DNA from: a bacterium
Lineage (GTDB): Bacteria > Patescibacteriota > Doudnabacteria > UBA920
DNA length: 64,000 nucleotides
Direction: 5' to 3'
NCBI GenBank assembly: GCA_021825655.1
Contig: JAKAGU010000005.1
Location: 12,400-76,399, forward strand
Shown: positions 2,484 through 24,053 of the stretch, piece by piece
Numbering within the stretch: the stretch's first letter is position 1
Layout of the letters: each line of letters begins with the position of its first letter
Notes under the pieces: model-generated
Databases searched by the model: none
What the model was told of the DNA's origin: nothing
What the model saw: only the letters and a program-made list of their open reading frames with translations
Translations under genes and position numbers: made by a program

Positions 2484-2497
2484 AAAACCTCGTAGAG

Positions 2498-7136: not shown

Positions 7137-7142
7137 ATTATA

Positions 7143-7969: not shown

Positions 7970-9316
7970 TTATGAATTGGTGAGGGCTTTATCTTTTTTC
8001 AGGAGTTTCAGCAAAATGGGCGTACCCCAGAAACCCAGCTCTTTGACCATTGAGTTTTCCAAAAATTTTCTGAACTGCATGGAAATGGCCGCGGGGTGGT
8101 TGACCAGCATTTGGAAGGTGGGCGGGTTGGTGTCGACCTGGTGCAGGGAAAAAACCTTGGGCCGTTTTTGGTCGCGCAAAAGCTTTGGCGGGTTGGTTTT
8201 AAGTTTTTTTGACAGGTATTCTGCCAGCACCTGGCTGTCAATTTGCTTGTTCCGCGCTTCGTAAATAGGTTTAACGGCTGCCAGGGCTTCGGGCAGGCCC
8301 TGGCCGTTCTTGGCGGAGACAAAAAATGCCGGACACATCCAAAGAAACGGGAAAAAACGGCTGACATAATCCCGCAGCATGTCTTCTTTGCCGTGGTAGA
8401 TGTCGAATTTGTTGGCGAGAATCACGCAGCCTTTTTCCATGGCAAAAATTTCCTGGGCCACGCGCTGGTCCTGCTTGGTCACTTCCTCGGTTGCGTCGAT
8501 GACAAAAAAACACACATCGCTGCGGCGGATGGCCTTGAAGGTTTGGAACCCGGAGAACAGGTCGGGTTTGGATTGCCGGTGCTCTTTCTTTTTTAGTCCG
8601 GCGGTATCGATAAAAGTGTAGGCCGTGCCGTCGATTTCCATTTGAGAATCTATGGCCGTGCGGGTGGTGCCGGGAATAGGGGAGACCACTACGCGTTCTT
8701 GTTTGAGGATGGCGTTAAATAGGCTAGACTTGCCCACGTTGGGTTTGCCGACAATGGATACGGCAATCCTGCTTGCGTGGGTGGAATCTTCGGTTGGTGT
8801 TTCGCGTTTGTGGGCCAGGGTCGTGGCCAGGTGGTCAAGCAGGTCGCCGATGCCCCGGCCGGTGATTGCGGAAACCGCAAAAGCGTTTTTAATGCCCAGC
8901 CGGGCGAAGGCCGCCAGGCTTTCTTCCAATTTTTTGGGCGAATCCACCTTGTTAACGGCCAAGGCCACGGGGATTTTTAGGCTGCGGAATTTTTTTATGA
9001 CTTTCGGGTCCAGTGCGGCGGCAGGCTCCTTGCTGTCCACCAGCAACACTGCCATGTCGGCTTCCGCCAGTGCAAATTCGATTTGTCTTTGAATGGAGGC
9101 TTCCAGTTCGTCGCGGTTCTGGAAAGCCAGACCCGCAGTGTCGACCAGGGTAAAATTGCGGCCGCCCCAGCTGATGTCCAAATATTGCCGGTCTCGGGTG
9201 GTGCCCGCCAGCTCCGAAGTTACAGCCAAAGGTTTGCCGGCGATTTTGTTTAACAACGTGGATTTGCCCGCATTGGGCGGGCCAACAATGGCAATAATAG
9301 GTAGAGTGTCTTTCAT
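7970..9316 (-). CDS. der: ribosome-associated GTPase Der/EngA
   Basis: Two tandem GTPase domains (GPPNAGKSTL and GKPNVGKSSL P-loops) plus a C-terminal KH-like domain. Confidence 0.9.
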   Translation of the reverse strand: MKDTLPIIAIVGPPNAGKSTLLNKIAGKPLAVTSELAGTTRDRQYLDISWGGRNFTLVDTAGLAFQNRDELEASIQRQIEFALAEADMAVLLVDSKEPAAALDPKVIKKFRSLKIPVALAVNKVDSPKKLEESLAAFARLGIKNAFAVSAITGRGIGDLLDHLATTLAHKRETPTEDSTHASRIAVSIVGKPNVGKSSLFNAILKQERVVVSPIPGTTRTAIDSQMEIDGTAYTFIDTAGLKKKEHRQSKPDLFSGFQTFKAIRRSDVCFFVIDATEEVTKQDQRVAQEIFAMEKGCVILANKFDIYHGKEDMLRDYVSRFFPFLWMCPAFFVSAKNGQGLPEALAAVKPIYEARNKQIDSQVLAEYLSKKLKTNPPKLLRDQKRPKVFSLHQVDTNPPTFQMLVNHPAAISMQFRKFLENSMVKELGFWGTPILLKLLKKDKALTNS

Positions 9317-9361
9317 GCGCGGTTTGGTTGAATATTCAGGTTAAAATATCAGGCGGCACTG

Positions 9362-10816: not shown

Positions 10817-10875
10817 AAGTTTGCCCAGGTATTATAACCGAATTTGCGCCATAAGTTAAGCCGCCTGTTTTTCTC

Positions 10876-10904
10876 TTGCATTGCCGCCTCAAATCGTGTA
10901 TATT
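10876..10904 (+). promoter_or_regulatory. Putative promoter TTGCAT-17-TATATT upstream of the tRNA-Val leader
   Basis: Near-consensus hexamers with a 17-nt spacer, about 115 nt upstream of the tRNA. Confidence 0.45.
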
Positions 10905-11019
10905 TTACCCAGCATGCGGCGAATGCCGCGCAAAACAGGCGGTAAACCGCAAACCAAGAAGGTTTGTCCTGCTGCATCTTTTGGACAATTAGCTCAGGCT
11001 TACCCTGTTGCAAATGCCT

Positions 11020-11096
11020 GGACAATTAGCTCAGCTGGTTAGAGCGCGCCGTTCACATCGGCGAGGTCACTGGTTCGAATCCAGTATTGTCCACCA
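11020..11096 (+). tRNA. tRNA-Val (anticodon CAC), encoded CCA
   Basis: Cloverleaf: acceptor GGACAAT/ATTGTCC, anticodon stem CGCCG/CGGCG with loop TTCACAT, T-arm GGTTCGAATCC, 3' ACCA. Confidence 0.9.
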
Positions 11097-11189
11097 TTTG
11101 CAACAGGGTGAAGTTAGAGCCCGCCGCCTTTTCTTGACTCTGCCCGGGAAATCCGTAGAATAATCCTACACAAGACTAAACCGCCATTT

Positions 11190-11792
11190 ATGCCCGAGGA
11201 AACAAACAATCAGGAAAACCAAAATCAGAGCCCTGTCGCATCGTTTGGTTTATTTTTATGGGATTTGGTCAAAATTTTTCTTTTGGCCATGATTATTATC
11301 CTGCCGGTCAGGACTTTTTTAGCTGAACCGTTTATGGTTTCCGGCTCTTCCATGATCCCGAATTTCCATGACAAGGACTATTTAATTGTGGACCGCCTGT
11401 CTTACCGGATACATAATCCCCAAAGAGGCGATGTGATTGTGCTTAAGTTTCCCAAAGACACGACCCAATACTTTATTAAGCGTATAATCGGCCTTCCGGG
11501 CGAAACTGTAATTTGCGAACAGGGCCGGGTGGCGGTGGAGGCGTCTGGAGAAGCCGCGCCGCAAATACTGGCTGAAACCTACCTGCCCAGCACCGCACTC
11601 ACCCAAAACTGCAAACCCAAGCAGGTTTTAGGCAGTGACGAGTATTTCGTGCTTGGCGACAACCGCATGGCCAGCAGCGATTCCCGGGTCTGGGGGATTC
11701 TACCCAAAGATGATATTGTCGGCCGGGTTTGGCTCCGAATTTTTCCTTTCCATGACTTTGGGTTTATGGCGACACCGAGTTACGCCCAGTAG
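11190..11792 (+). CDS. lepB: signal peptidase I
   Basis: N-terminal TM, catalytic Ser region (VSGSSMIPNF), KRIIGLPGE and GDNRMASSDSR boxes. Confidence 0.85.
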   Translation: MPEETNNQENQNQSPVASFGLFLWDLVKIFLLAMIIILPVRTFLAEPFMVSGSSMIPNFHDKDYLIVDRLSYRIHNPQRGDVIVLKFPKDTTQYFIKRIIGLPGETVICEQGRVAVEASGEAAPQILAETYLPSTALTQNCKPKQVLGSDEYFVLGDNRMASSDSRVWGILPKDDIVGRVWLRIFPFHDFGFMATPSYAQ

Positions 11793-11840
11793 CCTTCAGC
11801 GCTTTCTTTTTTAGTCTAAGCATTCAGCTTTTCCATTACC

Positions 11841-13136
11841 ATGGGTCGTCCAAAAAAGAACCCGACCGCCTCAGGCGGTTATGTGTCCAAAAAAATCCAG
11901 AGCCTGCCGGGCTCTACGGATATTATTACCTCCGCCGATGCGCTGTGGGATATTTTGCTGAAGCGTTTGTCCAGGACCGCCCGGGCGTACGGCTTTAACC
12001 GGGTGGAATCGCCGCTTTTGGAAGAGTCGCGCCTGTTTGAAAGCGCGGGCGCTTTTAACCCCGGGCAGGCAGTGGCCATTTCGGACCAAGCTTATGGCCG
12101 GCCGGTTGTGCTCCGGCCCGCGTTGTTGCCGTCAGTGCTCCGCGCCTATGTCCAGCAAAAAATTTACGAAACTTCTCCTGTCAGCAAATGGTGGTACAGC
12201 GGCTTTACCGTAGCCCAGAAAGAAAAAAGCCAGGCCGCATCGGATTTTAATTTTGGTTTTGAGGTGTTCGGCACGTTTACCCACTTAACCGAAGCCCAGC
12301 TGATTTCCGGCGTCTGGGAGCTGTTCCAGTCTTTGGGGCTCAAGGATTTGGCTTTGGAAATCAACAGTATCGGGGAAGAGGCTTGCCAGCGGGTTTACGA
12401 AGAGGCCTTGGCCGGATACCTGAGCGGCAAAAAATATGAGCTGTGCGACGCCTGCAGCGAGCACTTGAAAGGCAGGGTGTTGAACGTGTTGCGCTGTGAA
12501 AATTTGGACTGCCAGGCTTTGACAGCCGAAGCCCCGACCATTTTGGACTATTTGGATCCGAAAAGCCATAAGCATTTTACCAACATCCTCGAAGCTTTGG
12601 ATGAAATGGGGATTCCTTACCAGCTTAACCACCTGTACAGCGGACCCGAGGGCCACAGCCGCACTAATTTTGTGATAAAGCAAAAAACCAAAACAGGCAG
12701 CCTGGTGCTGGGCGAAGGCGGTTACCATGACGGCGTAATTCAGAACATTTGCGGGAAAAATTTTTGTTCTTTTGGTTTTTACGGCAGCCTGCAGAAAGTT
12801 TACGACCTGCTGACGGCCAGCCGGGTGACGGTTTCCCGCGAGCAGTCCAGCGAAGTTTTTCTGGTGCCTTTGGGCGAACTGGCTTCCAAAAAGGCCCTGC
12901 GGCTGTTCAGGGATTTGATCAGCAGCAAAATTTCTGTTTACGACCATTTTGGCGACGCGGGTGTAAAGAACCAGCTCAAAGCGGCCCAAACCTTCAAAGC
13001 CCCCATTGCCTTGATTATGGGGCAGAAGGAAGCTATGGATGAAATGGTGATTTTGAGGGATGTAAAATCCGGCATGCAGGAAGTTATTTCTTATGATAAA
13101 ATAGTGGAAGAAGTGAAAAAGCGCCTAGGCAAGTAA
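11841..13136 (+). CDS. histidyl-tRNA synthetase-like class II aaRS paralog with apparently degenerate catalytic motifs
   Basis: HisRS-like architecture: catalytic core, insertion domain (EINSIGEEACQ) and a C-terminal anticodon-binding domain. Conserved motifs read LRPALLPSV instead of LRPEGTA, there is no Arg-rich motif 2, and motif 3 reads GGYHDG instead of GGRYDG. Confidence 0.6.
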   Translation: MGRPKKNPTASGGYVSKKIQSLPGSTDIITSADALWDILLKRLSRTARAYGFNRVESPLLEESRLFESAGAFNPGQAVAISDQAYGRPVVLRPALLPSVLRAYVQQKIYETSPVSKWWYSGFTVAQKEKSQAASDFNFGFEVFGTFTHLTEAQLISGVWELFQSLGLKDLALEINSIGEEACQRVYEEALAGYLSGKKYELCDACSEHLKGRVLNVLRCENLDCQALTAEAPTILDYLDPKSHKHFTNILEALDEMGIPYQLNHLYSGPEGHSRTNFVIKQKTKTGSLVLGEGGYHDGVIQNICGKNFCSFGFYGSLQKVYDLLTASRVTVSREQSSEVFLVPLGELASKKALRLFRDLISSKISVYDHFGDAGVKNQLKAAQTFKAPIALIMGQKEAMDEMVILRDVKSGMQEVISYDKIVEEVKKRLGK

Positions 13137-13150
13137 TTAACGGAACAAAT

Positions 13151-13486
13151 ATGGAAGATTGCGTATTTTGCAGCATCGTCAATAAAACTTTGGAAAAGGA
13201 ATTGCTTTACGAAGACGACAAGGTGGTTGTTTTCAAAGACATCCTGCCTAAAGCGCCCGTGCATTTGCTCATTGTCAGCAAGGACCATATTGTATCCATT
13301 AACCACATTGCGGACACGCAGGAGAATTTGGCCGGGCATATGGTTAACGTAGCCAGAAAAATGGCTTTAAAGTACGGGGTTTACGAAAGCGGTTACCGGC
13401 TTATTTTTAATGTGGGCCGGGACGGCGGCCAGGTTATTCCCCATCTGCATCTGCATTTGCTCGGTGGTAAAACCTTGGAAGCCTAA
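13151..13486 (+). CDS. HIT-family nucleotide hydrolase
   Basis: Histidine-triad HLHLHLLGG near the C-terminus. Confidence 0.85.
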   Translation: MEDCVFCSIVNKTLEKELLYEDDKVVVFKDILPKAPVHLLIVSKDHIVSINHIADTQENLAGHMVNVARKMALKYGVYESGYRLIFNVGRDGGQVIPHLHLHLLGGKTLEA

Positions 13487-13664
13487 AATGAGAAAATTGC
13501 CGCCCCGCTGTTTAAAGCGGGGCGGTTTTTTATGCCTTCGGGGCAGGGTGTTGCCAGCTTTATCATTCGGGCTGGCAGCCTTTTCGGCTTAGGTTTGACC
13601 AAAGCCCAAAATTTCTGTATAGTATTGGTATCTGTTAACGAGAAAGGAGAGTGAGTTTTTCAAC

Positions 13665-13898
13665 ATGGTAGAAGTCAAACGCAAAGATAATGAATCATTT
13701 GAGAGTTTGCTGAGGCGTTTCAACCGCAAAATCCAACAGAGCGGCGTGCTTATTCGCGCCCGCAAAACTCGTTTTTTTGAATCTCCCAAGTCCCGCAATT
13801 TGCAAAAAGTTGCCGCCAGAAGGCGCTCGCAAATCCGCAGCGAAAAGGAAGAACAGAAAAAAATGATGCGCCCGGTCAAGAAATTCGGCCGCAGATAA
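13665..13898 (+). CDS. rpsU: 30S ribosomal protein S21
   Basis: MVEVKRKDNESFESLLRRFNRK... basic 77-aa protein matching S21. Confidence 0.9.
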   Translation: MVEVKRKDNESFESLLRRFNRKIQQSGVLIRARKTRFFESPKSRNLQKVAARRRSQIRSEKEEQKKMMRPVKKFGRR

Positions 13899-13979
13899 AT
13901 ATGACTCATGACAGATAACTTATTCTCTTAAAGAGGGGATATAAGTTATCCAATTATTAGTCATAATTCGGAAATAAAA

Positions 13980-14420
13980 ATGCTTTCGCTATCACAAATT
14001 GAAACAGACCTGGTGGCGGCTATCAAATCCAAGCAGCAGGCGCTGGTAGAGACCCTGCGGGGGCTTAAAACACGCATCCAAAACGAGCAGATTGCCAAAA
14101 TGAAGGAATTGGCTGAGGCTGATATTGTGGCTTTGGTAAAGTCGGAGGTGAAAAGGCGCAAAGAAGCTGCGGAAACTTACGTTTCCGGCGGCCGGGCTGA
14201 ATTGGCGGAAAAAGAGCTGATGGAAGCCGGGTTTTTGGAAAAATATTTGCCGCCCCAGATGAGCGAGTCCCAGATTGCGGAAATGGCGGAAAAAATTATT
14301 GCGGAAAAAGGTTTTACGGCTGCGGATTTTGGCAAGGCCATGGGGCAGCTTAAGGCCCAGGCCGGACAGAACGCGGACGGTTCCTTGCTTGCCAAGGTCC
14401 TAAAAGAGCAACTAAAGTAA
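13980..14420 (+). CDS. GatB/YqeY-domain protein
   Basis: Typical YqeY helical domain; rpsU-yqeY linkage is common. Confidence 0.8.
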   Translation: MLSLSQIETDLVAAIKSKQQALVETLRGLKTRIQNEQIAKMKELAEADIVALVKSEVKRRKEAAETYVSGGRAELAEKELMEAGFLEKYLPPQMSESQIAEMAEKIIAEKGFTAADFGKAMGQLKAQAGQNADGSLLAKVLKEQLK

Positions 14421-14440: not shown

Positions 14441-15691
14441 ATGCCAAAAGAACACTACATTGTCGGTTTGGACGTAGGCACTTATGCGGTGCGGGCGGTC
14501 CAGGCCAAATATAACCCTGAAAAAAATGAATTCAGCGTAATTGGCGCCTCGGAAGTGGAGTCCCGCGGCGTGCGGCGCGGCGTCATCGTGGACATAGAAG
14601 AAGCCGTTTCTTGCATTTCCAAAACTTTGGAGCGCTTGGAGCGCATGACGGGCGTGCCCGTGTCCGCGGCTAACGTTTCGGTTTCCGGCGGGCACGTGTC
14701 CGCTTTGCAGTCCCACGGCGTGATTGCGGTTTCCCGGGCTGACGGCGAAATTTCAGAGGCCGATGTGGTGCGCTGCATTGACGCCAGCCAGGCCATCTCC
14801 ATCCCGCAGAACCGCGAGGTGCTCCACGTCTTTCCCAAGACTTTCACTTTGGACGGCCAGACCGGCATCCGCGACCCGCTTGGCATGAGCGGCATCCGTC
14901 TGGAAGTGGACAGCGTGATTGTCCAGGCCGGTTTGCCTTTTGTAAAAAATCTGACCAAAGCGGTCATGCAGGCGGGTTTGGAGATTGAAGACCTGGTTCT
15001 GGCGCCCTTAGGCGCCAGCGAAGCCGTGCTTTCCAAGCGCCAGAAAGATTTGGGAGTGTGCCTGGTGGATTTGGGTGCGGGTACGACCAGTATGGCCGTA
15101 TTTGAAGAAAGCGACCTTGTCCATACCGTGGTTTTGCCAGTGGGCAGCCAGCATATTACCAACGATATTGCCATTGGCCTCCGGTGCAGCATCGAGACCG
15201 CGGAGCGCGTGAAATTGGATTATGGCCATTCGGACCCGAAAGCTATTGCCCGGGACGAGGAGATAGATTTGTCCAAAATAGACCCAGGCGAAGAGCAGAA
15301 CACGACGCGCAATTACGTGGTCGAAATCATTGAAGCCCGCTTGGAAGAAATTTTTAACATGGTGAATGCGGAATTGAAAAAAATTTCCCGCGACGGCAAA
15401 CTGCCGGCCGGTATTGTGCTGACAGGCGGGGGAGCTAACTTGCCGGGCGTAGCGGATTTTGCCAAGAAGCATTTGCGTTTGCCAGTGACTATCGGCAAGC
15501 TCCAGAACATTTCAACCATTATTGACCGGGTGCAGGATCCGAGCTTTGCCACGGTTTCCGGTCTGGCCCTGTGGGGCGAAGAGTTTGGGCATGGCGGGGG
15601 CGGCGATTCCTTGTCCTCGGTCCTGAATAAATTTTTAAAACACCCCAAAGCGGAAAAGGTGAAGAGTTGGTTTAAATCTTTCCTGCCCTAG
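14441..15691 (+). CDS. ftsA: cell division protein FtsA
   Basis: Actin-fold ATPase (IVGLDVGTYAVRAV..., DLGAGTTSMAVF..., VLTGGGANLPGV) with a C-terminal amphipathic tail. Confidence 0.9.
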   Translation: MPKEHYIVGLDVGTYAVRAVQAKYNPEKNEFSVIGASEVESRGVRRGVIVDIEEAVSCISKTLERLERMTGVPVSAANVSVSGGHVSALQSHGVIAVSRADGEISEADVVRCIDASQAISIPQNREVLHVFPKTFTLDGQTGIRDPLGMSGIRLEVDSVIVQAGLPFVKNLTKAVMQAGLEIEDLVLAPLGASEAVLSKRQKDLGVCLVDLGAGTTSMAVFEESDLVHTVVLPVGSQHITNDIAIGLRCSIETAERVKLDYGHSDPKAIARDEEIDLSKIDPGEEQNTTRNYVVEIIEARLEEIFNMVNAELKKISRDGKLPAGIVLTGGGANLPGVADFAKKHLRLPVTIGKLQNISTIIDRVQDPSFATVSGLALWGEEFGHGGGGDSLSSVLNKFLKHPKAEKVKSWFKSFLP

Positions 15692-15703
15692 TAAATTAAA
15701 GTT

Positions 15704-15733
15704 AAAAAAACCCTCAATTTGAGGGTTTTTTTA
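15704..15733. terminator. intrinsic terminator after ftsA
   Basis: AAAAAAACCCTCAAATTTGAGGGTTTTTTTAAT hairpin with a T-run. Confidence 0.65.
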
Positions 15734-15806
15734 ATGCCATACCGCCCGAATTATAAGTAGTTATGTGAAAACTTGTTTTAAATAAGGGTAAAATTAGGCA
15801 GGACTA

Positions 15807-15835
15807 TTGACAATTGGCCATTTTTTTGCTATAAT
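15807..15835 (+). promoter_or_regulatory. consensus sigma70 promoter TTGACA-17-TATAAT for the GC-rich gene downstream
   Basis: Perfect hexamers with a 17-nt spacer; the ~260-nt leader contains hairpins (AGGTGTCCT...AGGACACCT; CAGAGGTCCTCTG plus a T-run). Confidence 0.6.
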
Positions 15836-15911
15836 AGTGGGTCAAAATTATCAGTGTATTTATGCCGGTAATTTTGGCCAATTGTACCTTTTTATTCCGT
15901 AGGAGGAATAA

Positions 15912-16040
15912 GTGCTACTTAATTTAGAGGTGTCCTTTGCGACAAGCAGGCGATTTTTCGTCTTTTTGTGGCAGAGGACACCTACGTGTGTTCCGAAGCC
16001 GCGCAGAGGTCCTCTGGCGATTTTTTCTGGGAGCGTTTAA
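15912..16040 (+). CDS. possible 42-aa leader peptide/uORF (GTG start) in the 5' leader
   Basis: Strong AGGAGG Shine-Dalgarno 5 nt upstream of GTG; the ORF spans both leader hairpins. It is below the ORF-track length cutoff. Confidence 0.25.
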   Translation: MLLNLEVSFATSRRFFVFLWQRTPTCVPKPRRGPLAIFSGSV

Positions 16041-16095
16041 CAGCGTTTCCAAAACCGGAATGTAGTTTAGACACAGACTCCATGGAGATGATTCG

Positions 16096-17400
16096 ATGAA
16101 ACGATTGACCCTGATGTTCGCCTTCGTGCTGGCGCTGGCCATCACGTTTTCTCACTCGGCTCTCGCGCAGTTTGGCGGAGCCGAAAACCCGGGGATCCAG
16201 GCCCAGGCAGATGCGGCACAGGCGAAAGCCGATGCCGCGGCTGCCAAGAAGCAGGCCGACGATCTCAAGAAAGAAGTGGACACGCTCAAGAAGGGCGGCG
16301 GCCTCACATCCGACAACACGTGGATGTGGTGGTTGCTGCTGCTGATTCCGATCGGTCTCGGGGCATGGTGGTTCTTTTTCCGTAATCGTGGAGAGGGGCA
16401 ACCGCCTATCGTTCCCGAACCGGCTGCGCCTGCGGAACCCGAGAATCCGAACCCGCCCGCTCCCGACAACGGTGGTGGCGAACCCCCGGCTCCTCCGGCG
16501 CCCGCACCGCAACCCGAACCGGCTGCGCCTGCGGAACCCGAGAATCCGAACCCGCCCGCTCCCGCTCCTAACCGCAACCCGAACCCGGCACCCATTCTGG
16601 ACGACGCAGCCAAAAGCAGGCTGAGGCAGACACTTCCGGTGATTGCTTTCGTGTTGCTTTTCAGTGGTCTCGCTTCTTCCGTCCGCGCCGCGAACTGCTT
16701 CAACACCGCGGCCCCGGTCGGCGGCGCCTCTCCGGTGCCGATCGCTATTGTGAAGGAATCCAACACCCTTCGCTGCAACAACTCCAGCCCTCTCACCGTG
16801 TTTGACGAGAGCGGCCGGGCAGTTGCCACGGGGACGCGGACTATCACCTTCACTCCCACAACCTCCGGCCGTTACCATATCCGCGCAGGCAGGGTCACCA
16901 TCAGTCCGCTGGTGGTCACGGACCGCTACGGCGCGTTCCTGATCAACGGCTCTGTGGATCTGTCCCGCGGTTCGGTCTCTTCGGCTGACGCCACGGCGCG
17001 CACTCAGGCCAAGCAGGCTGATGTCAAGGCCAACGCGGCAATGAGCCGGGTGACCACTACCGAGAAGTCGGTGGGGACGCTCAGTGACCAGATCAAGGCC
17101 ATCGCCGCCGCGCACGACCGACTGGAGGAGCGCGTCTCCGCTCTGGAAAGCCGGCCGGCCCCCCGGGTCGACCTGGCTCCTTTGGAGCAGCGCGTGGCCA
17201 CGCTCGAAGCCGAGCTGGCGCGAGTGAAGGCCACGGCCAACACTGCGCTCAGTACCGCGCAACAGGCAGATGCCAAGGCTACCGATGCCAACACCCGGTA
17301 TGAAGAGATGGGCCTTGCCCGGTTTAAGACCGGCCTGTTCCGTTCCAAAACCGTGGTTGAGGCCGTCGAAGACGCCAAAGCCAAAGCCAGCAAACAGTAG
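16096..17400 (+). CDS. secreted/membrane protein with a signal peptide, TM helix, proline-rich tandem repeats and C-terminal coiled coil; GC-rich
   Basis: Signal peptide MKRLTLMFAFVLALAITFSHSALA, TM WMWWLLLLIPIGLGAWWFFF, duplicated EPAAPAEPENPNPPAP module, Ala/Glu/Arg-rich heptad C-terminus. The region 15982-17496 is visibly GC-rich (about 60-65% by eye) against ~45-50% flanks. Confidence 0.7.
   Translation: MKRLTLMFAFVLALAITFSHSALAQFGGAENPGIQAQADAAQAKADAAAAKKQADDLKKEVDTLKKGGGLTSDNTWMWWLLLLIPIGLGAWWFFFRNRGEGQPPIVPEPAAPAEPENPNPPAPDNGGGEPPAPPAPAPQPEPAAPAEPENPNPPAPAPNRNPNPAPILDDAAKSRLRQTLPVIAFVLLFSGLASSVRAANCFNTAAPVGGASPVPIAIVKESNTLRCNNSSPLTVFDESGRAVATGTRTITFTPTTSGRYHIRAGRVTISPLVVTDRYGAFLINGSVDLSRGSVSSADATARTQAKQADVKANAAMSRVTTTEKSVGTLSDQIKAIAAAHDRLEERVSALESRPAPRVDLAPLEQRVATLEAELARVKATANTALSTAQQADAKATDANTRYEEMGLARFKTGLFRSKTVVEAVEDAKAKASKQ
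16417..16564 (+). repeat. Two identical 49-nt direct repeats (16417-16465 and 16516-16564), period 99 nt, in frame
   Basis: GAACCGGCTGCGCCTGCGGAACCCGAGAATCCGAACCCGCCCGCTCCCG occurs twice and encodes the duplicated Pro-rich module. Confidence 0.8.
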
Positions 17401-17522
17401 CACTACAATCGCCGTTCCCCGCACGCCTGTAAAAAGGCCGGCGGGGGACACACACTCGAAAAAAGGGCCGGCCTCACAGCTTGCCCTTTTTTCCATGCCT
17501 GTTTTTTATTTTGGTCAACCGA

Positions 17523-17536
17523 GTCACATATGTGAC
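17523..17536. promoter_or_regulatory. perfect 14-bp palindrome GTCACATATGTGAC upstream of the small-protein/giant-protein operon
   Basis: Exact inverted repeat about 75 nt upstream of an extended -10 element (TGCTATAAT at ~17608-17616). Confidence 0.35.
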
Positions 17537-17658
17537 AAAAGTGCTGATTTTAATTGGATTTTGGCAGGCAAAAGAAGTGAGTTGTTTTTTTAAAAATGAA
17601 CCGTTTATGCTATAATTAATTTAAATTAAGCCAAAAATTAAGCATTGGAAACAAAAAT

Positions 17659-17982
17659 ATGAACCCTTCATTAACCTCCGCACAATATGTTGAAGATTTT
17701 TTGCAGGCGTTGTTAACCGAAGCTGGTATGGACACGGTTTCGGCTGAAGTCAAAGAACAGATGCTGACGGACTTAAGGGCCCGTTTGCAGGACCGGCTGT
17801 TCGGTACCATTGTTATGAATTTGAGCGACGGCAAGCTTACCGAATTCCGCGAATTGGTGGACAACGGCGGCTCGCAGGACGAGTTGGAAAAATTTGTGGA
17901 TGCCAATGTACCCAATTCGGCTGAAGTGTTTGCCCAGGCCATGATGACTTTTCGTAGCGATTATTTAGGCTTACAGGAATAA
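17659..17982 (+). CDS. small acidic helical protein (107 aa), first gene of the giant-protein operon
   Basis: D/E-rich, no TM; lies 26 nt upstream of the giant ORF. Confidence 0.6.
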   Translation: MNPSLTSAQYVEDFLQALLTEAGMDTVSAEVKEQMLTDLRARLQDRLFGTIVMNLSDGKLTEFRELVDNGGSQDELEKFVDANVPNSAEVFAQAMMTFRSDYLGLQE

Positions 17983-18008
17983 GCCTTTTTATTTTACCCA
18001 AATTAACT

Positions 18009-21000
18009 TTGCCCACTATGCCAGAAGGAGAAAATAGGGTTATTTTATCTTCCGATCTTGAGCCTAAGCCCAGCCGCGAACAACGCCAGGGGCAAGAGGG
18101 GAAAGAACAGCAAAAAGAAAAACTGAAAACGCGGGAATACTTGGACCGGGCGGTTTTGGAATTGAAAAATTTGCTAAAAGATTTGCCCCGAGACTCCAAA
18201 GAAGGCAAGCGCGCAGAGCATACCCTTAGGGCGGTGGAGTGGGCTTTGGGTAATTTGGGGAAAAATGGCGCGGGTGAAGGCAAGTACCGCCTGGAAATGA
18301 AAGACCACGAAGGCAAACCGGCCAAGTGGCCGGAGGGCAGTCCAGCAGTGCAGGACGAAGGCGTGCCCGTGGATGAGTTGATTGATTTGCTGAAAGGCCG
18401 CGCCCAAGAGCTGAATACTGAAGTCAGAAAAAAGGACAGCGTCAAAAAGAAAAAGCAAGCAATGGATGCACTGTGGGAGCGGTATAATTTGGCGCACGAG
18501 GTGGATTTAAAAGACCAGACGCACGATAAGGCCTGGGTGTATAGCCAGTGGGAGCAAGCCAAAAAGGCCTATGAGGCCGCCCAGGAAGCCTATGAATTGG
18601 GGTATGATGCAAAAGGCAAAGAGCTGGACGAACTGGCCGGGGAGCTTTACAAGCGGAGCGAAACTCACTTTCAGGCGCATTTCAGCCATGAGCTGCCTTT
18701 AAGCAAGGAAGAGTCCGACAAGCAGAATGTGCGTACTACCCATGAGGCGTATTTAATTCACCATGACTACCGCAAAACAAAAAACAAAGATCAGGATTAT
18801 CAGGCGGCCATGGATGCCATGGGCAAAAGAAGGGAACTGATTTTGGAAGAAAAGAAAGAGACTGAGATAATCCAGGGGCCGACGGGTCCGACTGAGGGTC
18901 CTGTGCAAGGCCCCACAGAAGGCCCCACAGAATTTATTAAAGGCCCAGAGCGCGTGGCTATTGTTAATGCCGAAGCGCAGGTAGAGCTTTTGGCCCGTAA
19001 GCGCGCCAACGAGAGGCTGACGGAAATGTTCAATGGCGCCGGACGGCTTAAAAAAATGTGGTATCGCGCCTGGGAAGAAGGCTACCGCCAGCAGCTGATT
19101 GACGAAGAGCGCAAGAAAATTTTAGGCGAAGGCAACAAAGCCAACTGGCTAAAGCGCAAACTGTTCGGGGCAAAGGAGTTTGATGCCACGGGCAAGAAAA
19201 ATTTGTTTGCCGGTACGGCTTCGGAAGGCGAAAATAAAACCGAGCTAACGGCTTTGGCTGAGCGGTTTTCCAAAGGCTACATTAAAGAATCGGAAGGCGA
19301 ACAGAAAGAGCAGCTGCAAGACCCCGAATTCAACAGCCAGCTCAATGACTTGGTTTTTAAATATGTGGAAGGCGGACTGTCGGACGAAGAATTTGAGAAG
19401 CAGAAAGATGAGATGATTGCGGCTATCGGTAAAAAATATCCGGAGAGTTTTGCGGCCGGCAAATTGACAGCGGACAATTTTTTGGAGGCGGCGCGGGAGT
19501 TTAAGAAAATCCACGAGCATTCCAAAAAGCTGGCCCGGGTGGATATCAATCTGGGCATAGATTTGGGCAATGCCAAGCAGGCCATCAAAACCCAGGCTAA
19601 CCTAAAATGGACGGACAGGATGATTGCCAAGCTCCAGAAATACCCCGGCATTGGCCATGTGTTTACTCCGGGCAGCGTAGGGTTTGGGGTTTCCGTGGGT
19701 GGCTATTTATTTAAAAAACCTTTGTATTTTGTGGGCGGCGCGGCGGGCGCGGGCGGCATCTTAGGCGGCATGCGGCGCAATTTTGAGCAGAAGCGCGATT
19801 TGGAAATGCACCGCATTGAAGCGGCCATGGGCAATAAGATTGCGGACTATGGACCGGCAGCCAAGCGCCGCCAGGAAATGGAAAAATATGTGCATGAAAT
19901 GAAAAATGCCTCCGAAGTGAGCGCGGAATTGGCCAGTTTGCGCGCGGCTTTCGAAGCCGGGCCCAGCCCTGAAAATGCGGCGGCTTTAACCAAGCTTTTG
20001 GCGGAAACGGAAGCGCGTATGTCGCTTTCCGAAGAACGGCAGCGGGATTTGATTTCTTTTGACGGCGAAACTACGCTGGAGCGCGGCCGGCTGTTTTTGC
20101 TAAAAGAACTCGCCGAGGCCAAAGTAAAGCTGGGTAATAAGGGCTTTGATTCCAATATTGCCGGCAGCCAGGACTATAAAGATTTTATGGCTTCTTTGGG
20201 CGGCAATATGGACAAATTGGAAAAAAGCGAAAAGTACAAGCGCTGGAAAGAAAACACGAAAGCCGCAGCCGTGGGCGCAGTTACCGGATTGGTGGTGGGC
20301 GGCTTGGCCCAGCAGGGGGCAGCGGAAATCGGCGACCGTGTTTCCTGGCTTTCCTGGCTGCGGCCGGGAGGCCGGGCTACGGGCATGGAGCGGCTTTATC
20401 ACTTTGTTAAAGGCGATTTGCCGACCGCGCCTTCGGGTGCGGGTTTGGCTGAAGTGGTGGGGATTGCCGGCGCGCACGGCACTGTTAAGATTGACGGCTC
20501 CACTGAGCTGGTCCAAAATCGGTCAACCGGCTTATGGAATCTGGTGGATAAGGCCGACCATACCAAAATTTTGGCGGAAATGGATATAGATCCCGCATCA
20601 GGACAGCTTACGCCCCGGCCGGGGAGCTTTGACCATAACCTTATTGATTTTTCTTCCCGCACCGCGGGCGGCGGGCACCGGAGCGTGGCCGAATGGATGC
20701 AGGACAGCCGCGCCGGCTTGCCGAAGGGGGCAAATATGGAGCATTTGCATACGGAGATGTTTTACGACAACGACACCCCGGCGCCAAAGTTTGATTTCAA
20801 CGAACTTCGGTTTTACATGCACGCAGATCCTCACGGCAACATTACCATGGATGCGGGCAAGATCCGGGAATACCTGGAAGAGAATTTTTCCCAAGTGTCG
20901 GGTTCCAGGCATGGCGAGCGGGCGTTGGATATTGTCAGTGCCTTTAAAAGCGGGGAGATAAAAATTGCCATCGCACCTGACCCGGACCATCCGGGAGAAA

Positions 21001-22694
21001 TGTTCACTTTCCAGCCAAATGCCGCAACGGGTGAATATGTGCTGCCTGCAGGCAGTGAAGTTGCCAAAATGTTCGGTGTGGACGGCTCGGGCAATGTTAC
21101 CTATAAAGGCAACGGCTTTATGGGCATGATAGAAAACCCCAAAGGCAGTGCCGTTGCCCGCTGGATAAACAGTATCCGTGGCAACGGCGAAGCCATTGAA
21201 ACAGGTCCGGGCCAGCGCGTGATTAATGAGATTACCAGGAAGTATCCGCGCGAATGGTGGATGCCCTGGATTGGCATTTTCAGGCGCAAGGCTCTGGAGC
21301 AAAAGCAGAAAAAAGAATTGGGCGGCGAACAGAAGGGGAAGGGCTCGCCTGGCCAGGAAGGCGAAGGCCACGGCAATGAAAAGCCGATTATTGTGGATAC
21401 GGAAGGCAAAAAAATTGAACCAAAGTTTATCTACTTTGAGGAAGAGGAAGAAACCGAGGAAGCGATAAAGAAAAAGCTGCTGGGTAAAAAGTTTAAACAG
21501 AAGGTGGCTGTGGATACGCGCGGCCAGAAAATTACCAATGACCGCAAAGATTACGGCAAAGACTACCCGCAGAAGTTTCCGTTTAAGGACGAAAAGCAAA
21601 TGGCCGATTATCTGGTCAACGTGCTCAAGGGGACGGGCAAATTTTTTGCCCGGGCAGAAGATTTGGATGCGCTGAAAAAATTGGACCAGGCTGGCAAGGT
21701 GAAGTTTTTGGAGGAGCGGATTAAAAAAGCCCGCACGACCGGCCTGGAGCTGCGCGACGGAGTCATTAAGCCGGAGGCGGCCCAGGAGCTGACCAGTTTC
21801 GTGCTGAACCGGGTCAATGAAGAGTTTGCCAAGTACGGGCAGGCGGGCCGGAGCGAAATGCCGGATGCCAGCAAAGTGCATATTGTCAGCATTTACGAGT
21901 TCCAGGCCCAGGCCGAATTGGGCGGCCGGGACGCTTTGGGCCTGTGTTTTACCCAAAACGGCGAAATTTTCATCAATTATGAGCTAATAAAAGAGGCGGC
22001 GGCCAACAGCGACGAATTTGTCCGTGAATTAAAGCGCACAATTGCCCACGAAGTGGTCCATGGGGGCGCGGCGGCCAACTATTGGGCGTTTGAACAGGAG
22101 GCCGACGGCAGCGACGGGGTGTTTGTGCAGAGGCGCACGGGTTTAAAAATGGTCCGCAGGGAAAACGCTTCCACCGACCTGGTCCGTGAGCGCGGCCGTG
22201 CGCTGAACGAAGCGGTTACTGAAACCCTGGCTAAGGATATTACCGACAGGATATACAAAGACGAAGGCGCCAAACAGGTTACTTACCGCAGCGAGCCGTA
22301 CCAAGATGAACGCAATGTGCTGAAGCTCATGCAGGAAAAATTCCATATTCCGTTTACGGCCTTTGCGGAAGCCGTAGTCAACCGCAAAGCCTTAAAAAAT
22401 TTGGCAGAACTTCTGGACGGCAAGAGCCAGGAAGGTAACAAGGTGGAGCGGCCTCAGTTTATGTCTTTGCTTATGTCGATTATGGATTACGAGCACAACG
22501 AGCATCACTTCGATTACGCCAAGACCAAGCAGCTTATTCAGGGGGCTAAGGGCCTGCAGATAACCCCGGAGATGAAATTGGCTTTCCCGGCATCGCTTTT
22601 GGACCGCGCCGGCAACATCAAAGCCAGTCTGGTTGAGCAGTACGACTTGGTAGACATGGATGCAGTAAGAAAACTCCGTCCCAAAGCCGCCTAA
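18009..22694 (+). CDS. giant protein (1561 aa): charged N-terminus, two glycine-zipper hydrophobic segments, C-terminal HExxH zincin-like motif
   Basis: K/E-rich low-complexity N-terminus with GPTEGP repeats. Gly-zipper stretches GSVGFGVSVGGYLFKKPLYFVGGAAGAGGILGG (~19670-19770) and AAAVGAVTGLVVGGLAQQGAAEIG (~20266-20335). HEVVH at 22047-22061 in the context TIAHEVVHGGAAANYWAFEQE. No signal peptide. Confidence 0.8.
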   Translation: MPTMPEGENRVILSSDLEPKPSREQRQGQEGKEQQKEKLKTREYLDRAVLELKNLLKDLPRDSKEGKRAEHTLRAVEWALGNLGKNGAGEGKYRLEMKDHEGKPAKWPEGSPAVQDEGVPVDELIDLLKGRAQELNTEVRKKDSVKKKKQAMDALWERYNLAHEVDLKDQTHDKAWVYSQWEQAKKAYEAAQEAYELGYDAKGKELDELAGELYKRSETHFQAHFSHELPLSKEESDKQNVRTTHEAYLIHHDYRKTKNKDQDYQAAMDAMGKRRELILEEKKETEIIQGPTGPTEGPVQGPTEGPTEFIKGPERVAIVNAEAQVELLARKRANERLTEMFNGAGRLKKMWYRAWEEGYRQQLIDEERKKILGEGNKANWLKRKLFGAKEFDATGKKNLFAGTASEGENKTELTALAERFSKGYIKESEGEQKEQLQDPEFNSQLNDLVFKYVEGGLSDEEFEKQKDEMIAAIGKKYPESFAAGKLTADNFLEAAREFKKIHEHSKKLARVDINLGIDLGNAKQAIKTQANLKWTDRMIAKLQKYPGIGHVFTPGSVGFGVSVGGYLFKKPLYFVGGAAGAGGILGGMRRNFEQKRDLEMHRIEAAMGNKIADYGPAAKRRQEMEKYVHEMKNASEVSAELASLRAAFEAGPSPENAAALTKLLAETEARMSLSEERQRDLISFDGETTLERGRLFLLKELAEAKVKLGNKGFDSNIAGSQDYKDFMASLGGNMDKLEKSEKYKRWKENTKAAAVGAVTGLVVGGLAQQGAAEIGDRVSWLSWLRPGGRATGMERLYHFVKGDLPTAPSGAGLAEVVGIAGAHGTVKIDGSTELVQNRSTGLWNLVDKADHTKILAEMDIDPASGQLTPRPGSFDHNLIDFSSRTAGGGHRSVAEWMQDSRAGLPKGANMEHLHTEMFYDNDTPAPKFDFNELRFYMHADPHGNITMDAGKIREYLEENFSQVSGSRHGERALDIVSAFKSGEIKIAIAPDPDHPGEMFTFQPNAATGEYVLPAGSEVAKMFGVDGSGNVTYKGNGFMGMIENPKGSAVARWINSIRGNGEAIETGPGQRVINEITRKYPREWWMPWIGIFRRKALEQKQKKELGGEQKGKGSPGQEGEGHGNEKPIIVDTEGKKIEPKFIYFEEEEETEEAIKKKLLGKKFKQKVAVDTRGQKITNDRKDYGKDYPQKFPFKDEKQMADYLVNVLKGTGKFFARAEDLDALKKLDQAGKVKFLEERIKKARTTGLELRDGVIKPEAAQELTSFVLNRVNEEFAKYGQAGRSEMPDASKVHIVSIYEFQAQAELGGRDALGLCFTQNGEIFINYELIKEAAANSDEFVRELKRTIAHEVVHGGAAANYWAFEQEADGSDGVFVQRRTGLKMVRRENASTDLVRERGRALNEAVTETLAKDITDRIYKDEGAKQVTYRSEPYQDERNVLKLMQEKFHIPFTAFAEAVVNRKALKNLAELLDGKSQEGNKVERPQFMSLLMSIMDYEHNEHHFDYAKTKQLIQGAKGLQITPEMKLAFPASLLDRAGNIKASLVEQYDLVDMDAVRKLRPKAA

Positions 22695-22800
22695 GCGAGC
22701 TGTGAGTTTAAATAAACCCCGCCCCCGGAGGCGGGGTTTTTGCTTATTTTAAAAGCGTTATGCTATAATTCAGTCAGCTTCTTTGATAAGCGATATTTTT

Positions 22801-22829
22801 TTGCAAAAACCGGTTACATAGTTTATAAT
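22801..22829 (+). promoter_or_regulatory. promoter TTGCAA-17-TATAAT ending 6 nt before the ftsZ start codon (ATG 7 nt past the -10), implying a leaderless ftsZ mRNA
   Basis: Hexamers and spacing read directly; ATG at 22836 with no room for an SD. Confidence 0.5.
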
Positions 22830-22835
22830 CTAGCC

Positions 22836-24053
22836 ATGAAAAAAGCTAAATTTATGGAAGTAAAGCCCAAAATTGAAAGTTTTGCGAGGATCAAGGTTTT
22901 AGGCATCGGAGGGTCGGGGACGAATGCGGTTAACCGCATGACCGAGCTGGGAGTAAGGGGGGTGGAGTTCATTGCCATCAACACGGACGCACAGGCGCTG
23001 CATAACAACAAGGCAGACCGCAAGGTCCACATCGGCAAAACCATTACTAAGGGTTTGGGCAGTGGCATGAATCCGGAGCTGGGCAGGCAGGCGGCCGAAG
23101 AAAGCGTGGAAGAGTTGGAAGAGGTGATTGATAATTCTGACATGGTATTTTTGACTTGCGGCTTGGGCGGCGGTACGGGCACGGGCGCAGCGCCGATTGT
23201 GGCTGAGCTTGCCAAAAACAAAGGCATCCTGACCGTAGCTGTAGTTACCAAACCGTTTACATTTGAAGGCAGCAAGCGCAAAGAAGTGGCGGAGATGGGC
23301 TATGACAACCTGAAAGACAAAGTGGATGCCATAATCTCCATCCACAACGACAGGATTTTACAGATTATCGACAAAAAGACTTCCTTGGTGGAAGCTTTCA
23401 AAACAGTGGATGAGGTGTTGCGCCAGGGCATTTCGGGAATTTCGGATTTGATTACTACGCACGGGATTGTGAACGCAGACTTTGCGGACGTAAAAAGCAT
23501 TATGCAGGACGCCGGCACTGCGCTTATGGGCATTGGCCATGCTTCCGGCGAAAACCGGGCGGCTGAAGCTGCCAAGTTGGCCATTAATTCGCCTTTGCTG
23601 GAGCTGACCATTGATGGTGCCAAAGGCGTGCTGTTAAACATCACCGGCGGTTCCTCCTTGGGCATGTTTGAAATCGACGAAGCCGCCAAGGTTATTACCA
23701 AGAGTATTGACCCTGATGCCAAGGTGAAGTTTGGCGCGGTTATTGACGAGGAGATGGGTGAAGAAGTGAGGATTACCGTGATTGCGACGGGTTTTGACGA
23801 GGGCAATAAGCGGCCCACTCCCCTGACCATGTCTTTCGGCGAAGAAACAAAGAAGCCGGTTATGGCGGAACCCCGCCAGCAGCCGGCTCACCAGCCTATG
23901 GAAGTCAGGAAGCCTTTGTTCAACCCCAAACCTATTCAGCCCGTACAGCCGGTCCAGCCCGTACAGCCAATACAGCCCATTGAGAGCAAGCCGGCCCAAA
24001 GCGAAGAAGATGAGTTGGAGATACCTGCTTTCATTAGAAAGAAAATGAAATAA
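22836..24053 (+). CDS. ftsZ: cell division protein FtsZ
   Basis: Tubulin signature GGGTGTG, T7 loop, QP-rich linker and C-terminal FtsA-binding peptide (EDELEIPAFIRKKMK). Start placed at 22836 (MKKAKFMEV) rather than track start 22740 because of the promoter. Confidence 0.92.
   Translation: MKKAKFMEVKPKIESFARIKVLGIGGSGTNAVNRMTELGVRGVEFIAINTDAQALHNNKADRKVHIGKTITKGLGSGMNPELGRQAAEESVEELEEVIDNSDMVFLTCGLGGGTGTGAAPIVAELAKNKGILTVAVVTKPFTFEGSKRKEVAEMGYDNLKDKVDAIISIHNDRILQIIDKKTSLVEAFKTVDEVLRQGISGISDLITTHGIVNADFADVKSIMQDAGTALMGIGHASGENRAAEAAKLAINSPLLELTIDGAKGVLLNITGGSSLGMFEIDEAAKVITKSIDPDAKVKFGAVIDEEMGEEVRITVIATGFDEGNKRPTPLTMSFGEETKKPVMAEPRQQPAHQPMEVRKPLFNPKPIQPVQPVQPVQPIQPIESKPAQSEEDELEIPAFIRKKMK

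Follow-up and report, generated by a model that had tools for sequence, protein, structure and literature searches.

Old separation of ftsA and ftsZ in a Patescibacteria clade and the DUF5663-giant protein gene pair located between them

The genes ftsA and ftsZ adjoin each other in most bacteria and are among the most conserved bacterial gene pairs. Patescibacteria live on the host cells to which they attach, and one in two of their genes is uncharacterised. In a 64,000-nucleotide stretch of the Doudnabacteria contig JAKAGU010000005.1 (assembly GCA_021825655.1; hereafter the window), ftsA and ftsZ are located 7,144 bp apart on the same strand, with two self-contained transcription units in between: a gene for a 434-amino-acid (aa) protein, p434, and a gene for a DUF5663 protein followed by a gene for a giant protein (Table 1). 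The dcw cluster, named for division and the cell wall, is generally conserved (PMC8871954). The window resembles the canonical cluster (PMC8871954) in that both genes are canonical and keep the same strand and order, and differs from it in that they are 7.1 kb apart and transcribed separately, with no mur, mraY, ftsW, ftsI or ftsQ genes upstream. As described below, the split is of old date and was inherited, the composition of the spacer is native, and its units are independently transcribed. We consider it rather probable that the interval between ftsA and ftsZ was expanded long ago in one Patescibacteria clade and passed on vertically, and that the spacer contains a module whose position there is likely incidental.

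Conservation and composition of the interval

The open reading frame (ORF) listing and the family scans confirmed the end of ftsA and the start of ftsZ given in a preliminary description of this DNA, which was made from the letters alone. The FtsA product matched TIGR01174 (E = 1e-112, 376.7 bits; cutoff 175.85) and both Pfam FtsA (PF14450) and SHS2_FTSA (PF02491), and the SHS2 insert is present. The FtsZ product matched TIGR00065 (E = 1e-123, 412.9 bits; cutoff 295.2) together with Pfam Tubulin (PF00091) and FtsZ_C (PF12327); it carries the C-terminal peptide (...IPAFIRKKMK) and terminates in ...LEIPAFIRKKMK. The same listing and scans detected no dcw cluster upstream of ftsA; mur genes, mraY and ftsW, ftsI or ftsQ were not there.

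Contigs of relatives were collected by exact look-up, genome scan and metagenome scan, and the window proteins were compared with them by tblastn. The gene order of the window recurs in at least five other lineages (loci L003, L004, L006, L012/L026, L001/L007 and L009), and the identity to the window counterparts across the syntenic loci amounts to 72-92% for FtsA and 80-94% for FtsZ. Locus L003 contains ftsA, a gene for a 507-aa protein, the DUF5663 gene, the giant gene and ftsZ in this order (identity 92% for FtsA, 59% for the giant protein and 93% for FtsZ), L004 contains a p434 homolog, the DUF5663 gene, the giant gene and ftsZ (giant protein 82%), and L012 and L026 contain ftsA, a p434 homolog (543 aa in L026), the DUF5663 gene and the giant gene (FtsA 89% in L012). 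In L001/L007, from Candidatus Doudnabacteria, AbiEii, two ORFs, and DUF6922 with AbiEii lie between ftsA and the DUF5663-giant-ftsZ segment (FtsA 72%, giant protein 49%, FtsZ 80%). In L009, also from Candidatus Doudnabacteria, ftsA is followed by two ORFs, the DUF5663 gene, the giant gene, five ORFs with a T4SS_pilin-domain gene, and ftsZ (FtsA 72%, FtsZ 80%, giant protein about 35-42%). The segment from ftsA through a p434-like gene and the DUF5663 gene to the giant gene was seen in L003, L012, L026, L001 and L009, and the segment from the DUF5663 gene through the giant gene to ftsZ in L001/L002, L003 and L004, with a further 6 kb before ftsZ in L009. In the window the gap measures 7.1 kb, compared with 7.5 kb for L003, 12.6 kb for L001 and 14.1 kb for L009; the additional content of the larger ones comprises genes for AbiEii toxins, for a protein with a T4SS-pilin domain and further ORFs. 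The closest named relative of the window giant protein is labelled "Patescibacteria group bacterium". The order shared across lineages indicates that the arrangement is ancestral to a sizeable clade, in which a variable region surrounds a constant DUF5663-giant pair.

The preliminary description had proposed a horizontally acquired insertion as one origin of the split. A recently acquired genomic island or mobile element in the division locus would fit the high GC content of p434 (GC 0.64; GC at third codon positions, GC3, 0.74) and the AbiEii toxin-antitoxin genes found in the same gap of L001 and beside the pair in L013. The synteny in at least five other lineages argues against it, and so does the composition, both being grounds on which the preliminary description itself would have given up an insertion: when 3-kb windows were compared with the whole 64-kb window by tetranucleotide distance, z across 13-25 kb ranged from -0.75 to 0.0, and GC3 in the DUF5663 gene (0.56) and the giant gene (0.61) comes near the values for the other genes measured. 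The positional homologs of p434 in all relatives have the same GC excess, and the gap borders showed no flanking direct (att-like) repeats, no integrase gene and no tRNA. Recent horizontal gene transfer was rejected on the grounds of synteny, composition and the absence of att-like repeats, tRNA and integrase, and a recent island is accordingly regarded as extremely improbable. An insert between normally adjacent genes, encoding membrane or envelope products, stands from the preliminary description, without the recent import.

The compositional outliers of the window lie elsewhere, at 46-51 kb and 59-64 kb. The stretch at 46000-51000 has a GC content of 0.35-0.42 versus about 0.52 and a tetranucleotide z of up to 3.3; it contains a 431-aa ORF without a Pfam family (47492-48787) and adjoins tRNA-Gly (49488-49562). 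As a candidate for foreign DNA, this stretch ranks ahead of the ftsA-ftsZ gap. The stretch at 59000-64000 (z up to 3.6, GC skew reversed) consists mostly of a 1,170-aa ORF without a Pfam family (59152-62664), with long antisense ORFs overlapping. A SAM-I riboswitch (50156-50260; 55 bits, above the gathering score) is located upstream of a 397-aa ORF (50306-51499). The genes preceding ftsA comprise lepB, hisS, a HIT gene and yqeY, with an S21 gene inferred from relatives. For the rest, the window looks like the ordinary chromosome of a small genome, with topA, dprA, der, class II ribonucleotide reductase, comEC, groEL, relA/spoT, fpg, transketolase and transaldolase genes.

Table 1. Positions of the genes, signals and protein regions in the window, and of selected features in relatives' loci
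Feature	Position	Strand	Remark
ftsA	14441-15691	+	416 aa, actin-like, C-terminal amphipathic tail; canonical
Intrinsic terminator after ftsA	15702-15734	+	16-bp perfect stem between A run and T run
p434 promoter, sigma-70 type	15807-15835	+	TTGACA-N17-(TG)TATAAT, perfect consensus
p434 5' leader	15843-16095	+	~255 nt, structured, conserved
p434	16096-17400	+	434 aa
GC-rich hairpin after p434	17417-17446	+	within 17401-17495; presumed transcript 3' end
Weaker A-run/T-run hairpin after p434	17460-17494	+	within 17401-17495; presumed transcript 3' end
Palindrome GTCACATATGTGAC	17523-17536	.	earlier proposed as an operator
Promoter-like site before DUF5663 gene	17589-17616	+	TTTAAA-N16-(TG)TATAAT; consensus scan
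DUF5663 gene	17659-17982	+	107 aa
Terminator-like hairpin and T-run on DUF5663 stop codon	17967-17996	+	candidate internal attenuator
Giant gene	18018-22694	+	1,558 aa from ATG 18018
Giant, N-terminal extension	residues 1-304		clade-specific, charged; ends in variable Pro-rich linker
Giant, family core	18930-21287	+	residues ~305-1094; helical region and beta-rich domain
Giant, two adjacent Gly-rich hydrophobic helices	19674-19808	+	residues 553-597; predicted membrane hairpin
Giant, third Gly-rich hydrophobic helix	20259-20327	+	residues 748-770; basic N flank, acidic C flank
Giant, linker	residues 1095-1150		K/E/G-rich
Giant, zincin-like C-terminal domain (predicted)	21465-22691	+	residues 1150-1558
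Strong intrinsic terminator after giant gene	22714-22739	+	consensus scan
Candidate ftsZ promoter 1	22761-22769	+	extended -10 TGCTATAAT; would give ~60 nt leader
Candidate ftsZ promoter 2	ends 22829	+	TTGCAA-N17-TATAAT; 6 nt before ATG
ftsZ	22836-24053	+	405 aa; canonical
p434-type gene in L003	6071-7594		GC3 comparison
p434-type gene in L026	8187-9818		GC3 comparison
p434-type gene in L001	5730-6929		GC3 comparison
p434-type gene in L009	5461-7428		GC3 comparison
Pair and upstream genes in L028	5111-13229		spc operon, SecY, small ORF, VirD4-like ATPase (DUF8128), then pair
Pair and upstream genes in L030	5106-13421		same order as L028

Transcription signals and the p434 gene

Promoters and terminators were called by consensus scan, and their conservation was judged from alignments with the relatives' loci. 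Both units between ftsA and ftsZ have promoters of their own and conserved terminators. The terminator after ftsA is kept in L003 as a hairpin and T-run with a different stem sequence (compensatory changes). The p434 promoter is the sole 12/12 match within 13.4-24.8 kb and is invariant in L003 and in L026/L012; the GC-rich gene with its own consensus promoter was correctly recognised from the outset. At the promoter-like site of the DUF5663 gene, TATGCTATAAT is kept in L006 and L004, and TGCTATAAT also occurs in the shorter spacer of L003. The hairpin at the DUF5663 stop codon, which the consensus scan placed with its T-run at 17967-17986, is kept in six loci, and L001 forms a different hairpin at the same position. 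The terminator after the giant gene is kept in L004, L003 and L001 with compensatory stem changes. With a promoter and a conserved terminator predicted for every unit, the signals argue against read-through from ftsA to ftsZ.

Both candidate ftsZ promoters are kept in L004 and L003, the first one also in L001, and the TATAAT located 6 nt ahead of the ftsZ ATG is conserved in three close lineages. In most genes of the window no Shine-Dalgarno sequence is present, and for several of them a TATAAT is located 6-12 nt ahead of the ATG (for example 41319-42065 and 36830-38329, both on the minus strand, and ftsZ itself). Leaderless or very short-leader mRNAs thus seem common in the source organism, and since Shine-Dalgarno sequences are rare and TATAAT lies near ATGs, a short or absent leader would be a habit of the genome rather than something peculiar to ftsZ. 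That ftsZ is leaderless, as first suggested, or nearly so, is plausible and would fit this habit; its own promoter is borne out by the two conserved candidates, yet the other -10 element would give the longer leader listed in Table 1.

A palindromic operator had also been proposed for the DUF5663-giant unit. The palindrome GTCACATATGTGAC is indeed present, but the window contains 11 perfect palindromes of 14 nt in all (3.4 ± 1.8 in shuffles), and this one is kept solely in a 90%-identical relative, being lost in L004 (82%) and L003 (59%). An operator role was rejected as unsupported because of this number of similar palindromes and the loss of conservation beyond the 90% relative.

The p434 product is predicted to consist of a signal peptide, a transmembrane segment, a Pro-rich linker, a second hydrophobic segment, a beta-rich domain with two Cys, and a coiled coil at the C-terminus; it matched no Pfam or NCBIfam family. 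Positional homologs in L001, L003, L004, L006 and L012 are 26-93% identical. Its gene forms the GC peak at 16-17 kb (GC 0.64 as above, second-position GC 0.54, Ala, Pro and Gly together 33%), with a GC3 of 0.74 versus 0.56-0.67 in the other genes measured. In every genome examined, the GC3 of the p434-type gene is 0.1-0.3 above that of its neighbours, whatever the base GC, and the same excess in the homologs of four other genomes indicates a property of the gene and not a mark of recent arrival; expression-driven codon bias is one possibility. A perfect in-frame direct duplication of 52 nt (16414-16465 and 16513-16564, 99 nt apart) is present in the Pro-rich linker and looks like a recent tandem expansion.

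For the leader of p434, RNAalifold predicted 63 pairs on the basis of three sequences only, and compensatory changes occur at 14 of these pairs. The structure includes a long hairpin (15928-15983) and a stem pairing an invariant AGGAGGAAUAA; two terminator-like hairpins were also noted within the leader (15948-15963 and 16004-16016). Rfam scans by gathering score and by E-value returned no family for the leaders. A leader-peptide ORF starting with GTG at 15912 was ruled out, as L003 has a stop after three codons and a frame-breaking indel. The leader may act as an mRNA stabiliser or an attenuator. Downstream, the approximately 55 nt immediately after the p434 stop codon (17401-17455) are nearly invariant in four loci, including the 59% relative, and the 3' hairpin element occurs once in the window.

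Genes for S-layer and other abundant surface proteins have strong promoters and long stabilising 5' untranslated regions. The p434 gene resembles them in its perfect promoter, its structured leader of ~255 nt, its signal peptide and a GC3 above that of its neighbours; it differs in that its product shows no homology to known S-layer proteins and has internal hydrophobic segments and a Pro-rich linker. By this analogy, and given the promoter, leader, signal peptide, GC3 and 3' hairpin, the features would fit a very highly expressed surface protein.

The DUF5663 protein and the giant protein family

The DUF5663 protein is acidic (pI 4.2), as previously noted, and helical, and scored 40.5 bits against PF18908 (gathering threshold 23.7); its relatives are likewise annotated PF18908 in precomputed annotation. 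For each of the eight distant family members with a fetchable contig (L022, L023, L024, L025, L028, L029, L030 and L031), the gene immediately preceding the giant gene encodes DUF5663, and a hidden Markov model (HMM) scan of every fetched locus gave no exception where upstream DNA exists. The two genes are spaced 0-75 nt apart, and the window contains one copy of each. Comparison of the DUF5663 profile with PDB generated weak matches only, to the trigger-factor C-terminal domain (E 0.015-0.065), regarded as a lead, and to designed repeats; neither was used as evidence. Additional DUF5663 genes were located in L025 (15233-20372), beside an ORF of more than 1,400 aa, and in L010 (4279-4623, minus strand), beside a 360-aa ORF. 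The core HMM described below did not match these ORFs, suggesting that DUF5663 may partner more than one kind of protein. The literature searched contained no description of DUF5663 (PF18908).

The layout of the giant protein was derived from an alignment of nine relatives and simple sequence statistics. The ORF was confirmed, but the length of 1,561 aa first described was not upheld: database relatives start at ATG 18018, which gives 1,558 aa. From its N-terminal side, the core contains two Gly-rich helices, a conserved helical stretch, a third Gly-rich helix and a beta-rich domain, and it ends at a junction motif P..P...R..LE (P1083, P1086, R1090, L1093, E1094) kept in at least 90% of the aligned members. 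The loop of the helix hairpin carries Lys and both of its outer flanks are basic. At the third helix, the flanks contain 5.6 (N side) versus 1.1 (C side) K+R per 15 residues family-wide, the C flank being acidic or neutral. The giant protein lacks a signal peptide, carries many charged residues and has a single Cys. It ends in ...PKAA (22680-22691), most close relatives ending in ...P[KIL]AA; across 145 family members, the last 25 residues have a net charge of +2.1 versus -0.5 per 25 residues in whole proteins, and 20 of these members have the -AA end. A basic C-terminus ending in -AA may signal secretion or degradation.

Searches of Pfam, NCBIfam, PADLOC and PHROGs with the three inserted proteins returned DUF5663 and coiled-coil noise only; the giant protein matched nothing in these databases or among PDB sequences, and PDB sequence searches remained negative when profiles were made from the full giant protein and from the C-terminal domain alone. 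The C-terminal domain contains HEVVH at residues 1344-1348 (nt 22047-22061), of which H, E and H are kept in eight of nine relatives, with a conserved ERGRALNEAVTE about 45 residues and conserved Glu residues ~50 residues downstream, and its best fold match is YbeY. The conserved HExxH motif supports, and the fold search suggests, a zincin-like HExxH metallohydrolase as the probable identity of the domain in this clade. In HExxH and the downstream Glu it resembles zincins (gluzincins such as M1 aminopeptidases and thermolysin; SprT/Wss1; YbeY; the 3cmn DUF type), from which it differs in having no curated peptidase family (no Pfam or NCBIfam peptidase family matched) and in being fused to a 1,150-aa membrane protein; YbeY itself has a different metal motif (H-x3-H-x5-H).

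Word-indexed protein searches found 10-12 relatives of the giant protein and understated the size of the family. An exhaustive profile search on the core followed, which yielded 893 matches at E<=1e-3, 714 at E<=1e-10 and 381 at E<=1e-30 (clusters at 50% identity), mostly 1,000-1,900 aa long and typically aligned over ~750 positions. In alignments of 34-40 diverse members, high occupancy and identity were restricted to window residues 301-1100; the window giant protein matched the 34-member core HMM with E = 1e-241, its own sequence (P0001) being among the members. The core of ~800 aa has no Pfam family. The C-terminal domains beyond it (heads) matched GT2, GT9, Pkinase, Peptidase_C2 (calpain-type) and DUF362 in Pfam, glycosyltransferases (GT2, GT9) being the most frequent recognisable heads. 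The relatives P0184 and P0097 share 51% identity across residues 7-1317 but show no relation past that point, where one carries a degenerate kinase-like head and the other a calpain-like head with intact GDCYLLAAL and HAYSV. A Pfam scan for trafficking and pre-toxin domains (Rhs/YD, LXG, VENN, PAAR, MuF) found none in the window giant protein or in 41 relatives. These comparisons show the DUF5663 and giant genes to form a widespread, unannotated two-gene module with an exchangeable C-terminal enzyme domain. The preliminary description had considered a lineage-specific system, which the 893 clusters and the occurrence of the pair away from ftsA and ftsZ contradict.

The pair is found in varied contexts. 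In L013 (giant protein 46%) it is placed between a divergent M23/LysM peptidase gene and AbiEii-UvrD, and in L016 (giant protein 31%, DUF5663 58%) between EF-G and EF-Tu, with the S10 ribosomal operon following; tblastn detected neither ftsA nor ftsZ within 8 kb of the pair in L013 or L016. In the latter locus, the pair and three upstream minus-strand ORFs (1480-14065) split fusA and tuf, which are normally adjacent and highly conserved. Other distant contexts are PIF1 helicase and DnaG, rpoD, FtsH, and a HopA1-family protein (L025); a further distant copy follows FtsK and a 1,122-aa ORF and precedes a HepT/MNT toxin-antitoxin. In L028 and L030 the pair is preceded by a VirD4-like ATPase (Table 1). 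Their giant proteins bear different heads (kinase-like versus calpain-like), and their VirD4-like type IV coupling proteins (T4CPs) are 82% identical, representing a single lineage; tblastn with T4CP and other neighbour proteins had no match in the 64-kb window, and a T4CP was absent from the other loci as well. No immunity gene was recognised 3' of the giant gene, the next gene being ftsZ in the window and EF-Tu, DnaG or other unrelated genes elsewhere. Toxin-antitoxin genes recur beside the pair (AbiEii/DUF6922 in L001, 2913-3536 and 8617-9511; AbiEii in L013, 12956-13621; HepT/MNT in L029, 11867-12741). Two pair-bearing contigs are labelled uncultured Gammaproteobacteria (L010, CAZEEW010000021.1) and Candidatus Saccharibacteria (L008, CAZFXC010000055.1); the label of the L010 contig, at least, looks like a binning error. 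In the literature searched, no description was found of the pair, of an ftsA/ftsZ split in Doudnabacteria or of polymorphic toxins in Patescibacteria.

Readings of the DUF5663-giant module and comparison with known systems

We infer that the giant protein and DUF5663 form a partner-assisted, membrane-anchored enzyme carrier, possibly a host-directed effector. The DUF5663 protein would be made in excess over the giant protein because of the conserved terminator-like hairpin on its stop codon, and would serve as a dedicated partner or escort. The giant protein would be anchored in the membrane through its Gly-rich helices, with the beta-rich domain and the C-terminal enzyme outside the cytoplasm, acting on substrates in the envelope or in the host cell; this placement of the head follows from the positive-inside rule applied to the third helix, if that helix spans the membrane. 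The site beside ftsA and ftsZ would most likely be incidental, the spacer serving as a permissive site that gathers accessory genes, and the two division genes would be transcribed separately.

Several points weigh against this picture. The function of the pair is deduced from architecture alone, with no homology anchor for the core or for DUF5663, and the structural model of the core (residues 305-1090) is poor (predicted local distance difference test score, pLDDT, 52; predicted template modelling score, pTM, 0.30), Foldseek giving no hit against PDB at E<=0.001. The helices of the giant protein are just moderately hydrophobic (Kyte-Doolittle ~0.9-1.25), which makes the topology uncertain. 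Glycosyltransferase and kinase heads normally need cytoplasmic nucleotide substrates, so that a cytoplasmic C-terminus would be favoured, unless the head is delivered into another cell. In the predicted zincin-like domain the third metal ligand is a guess, and the best fold match, YbeY, is an RNase and not a protease. The spread over the whole phylum is an extrapolation from few loci with taxon names, and the adjacency of ftsA and ftsZ as the ancestral state was taken from general knowledge of bacteria and not from an outgroup locus. The incidental position, finally, has to be set against the retention of the arrangement across deep divergence and against distant copies located near ftsK and near the M23/LysM peptidase gene.

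These last observations are also what favours a lineage-specific division or septal-envelope system working with FtsA and FtsZ, as the preliminary description had considered: the same-strand position between the two genes is kept across deep divergence, and one distant copy is one gene downstream of ftsK while another is near the M23/LysM peptidase gene. Against it, promoters and conserved terminators lie between all units, which also speaks against the suggested co-regulation with ftsA and ftsZ; pairs whose giant proteins are 46% and 31% identical to that of the window occur without ftsA or ftsZ within 8 kb, one of them splitting fusA/tuf; seven of eight distant contigs have no division gene nearby, the eighth being the one with ftsK; and the proteins show no similarity to known divisome proteins. 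We regard such a system as quite improbable. A cytoplasm-facing, membrane-tethered scaffold for envelope biogenesis or regulation, with the helices as a monotopic anchor and the head working at the inner membrane face, for example in glycopolymer synthesis or proteolytic control, is in our judgement possible though unlikely. Such a scaffold agrees with the prevalence of GT2 and GT9 among the recognisable heads, as these use cytoplasmic nucleotide sugars, with the absence of a signal peptide, the high charge and the single Cys of the giant protein, with the Lys in the hairpin loop and the basic outer flanks, and with the single copy in the window and the chromosomal, housekeeping contexts. The basic N flank and acidic C flank of the third helix nevertheless predict a membrane crossing, and the exchange of protease, kinase-like and glycosyltransferase heads is hard to fit to one housekeeping pathway.

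The pair could instead be a chaperone and a secreted effector or translocator aimed at the host cell of the episymbiont, DUF5663 masking the helices, a VirD4-like protein and a type IV secretion system (T4SS) exporting the giant protein, and the head acting in or on the host; this, too, we hold to be tentative and on balance doubtful. To our knowledge, the essential T4SS of Patescibacteria has no known substrate. In favour of an exported effector are the constant trunk with a varying C-terminal enzyme and a clear swap between related proteins, the small acidic partner gene always directly upstream, the VirD4-like coupling ATPase immediately upstream of the pair in L028 and L030, the T4SS-pilin-domain protein in the ftsA-ftsZ gap of L009, the HopA1-family neighbour in L025, and the net basic C-terminal tails. 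In Patescibacteria, 5,713 VirD4 homologues were counted in 2,918 genomes (approximately two each), of which 148 are near virB4 (PMC12102498). A review describes the role of the T4SS as completely unknown and effector delivery as merely speculated (PMC11665869). However, the coupling-protein adjacency represents one lineage and the 64-kb window has no T4CP; there is no homology to a known effector, trafficking domain or chaperone; the single copy in the window and the location of copies among housekeeping genes rather resemble a core function; effectors do not usually have GT9 or GT2 heads; and no immunity-like gene follows. A broader form of this proposal, in which the chaperone and effector or translocator system is Patescibacteria-wide, uses orphan VirD4-like proteins and the T4SS for export, and has in the ftsA-ftsZ interval a neutral landing site, appears rather improbable. 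The enzyme carrier in an old, inherited spacer is the reading that we prefer.

The locus indicates that the adjacency of ftsA and ftsZ can break and stay broken, with separate promoters, in at least one clade of ultra-small bacteria. The giant protein family comprises nearly 900 sequence clusters with a core that has no domain model and was not found in the papers searched. A conserved, modular giant protein that putatively inserts into the membrane and has its own partner offers a concrete candidate for functions in the envelope or in host interaction, and, if the effector proposal is true, this family would provide the T4SS of Patescibacteria with its first candidate substrates.

Among described systems, the module can be compared with polymorphic toxins that have helper genes (Rhs/YD, CdiA, LXG with Lap, and type VI secretion system effectors with Eag) and with T4CPs that have adaptors and effectors (DotL-IcmS/IcmW of Legionella). 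Eag chaperones bind the transmembrane helices of type VI secretion system effectors, and the LXG toxins of the type VII secretion system have small helical Lap partners. The giant protein has no sequence or fold relation to polymorphic toxins, lacks a downstream immunity gene and often carries a glycosyltransferase head in the family, and the window pair is single-copy, among housekeeping genes and with no secretion system nearby in the window. It shares with them a constant trunk, an exchangeable C-terminal enzyme, a small upstream partner gene, and helices that a chaperone could shield. Unlike DotL-IcmS/IcmW, the pair adjoins a T4CP in one lineage only, the window having none. Like the adaptors of that system, DUF5663 is small (approximately 100 aa), acidic and helical; the VirD4-like ATPase upstream in that lineage and the basic tails of the giant proteins are further points of likeness, and orphan T4CPs are abundant in Patescibacteria (PMC12102498).

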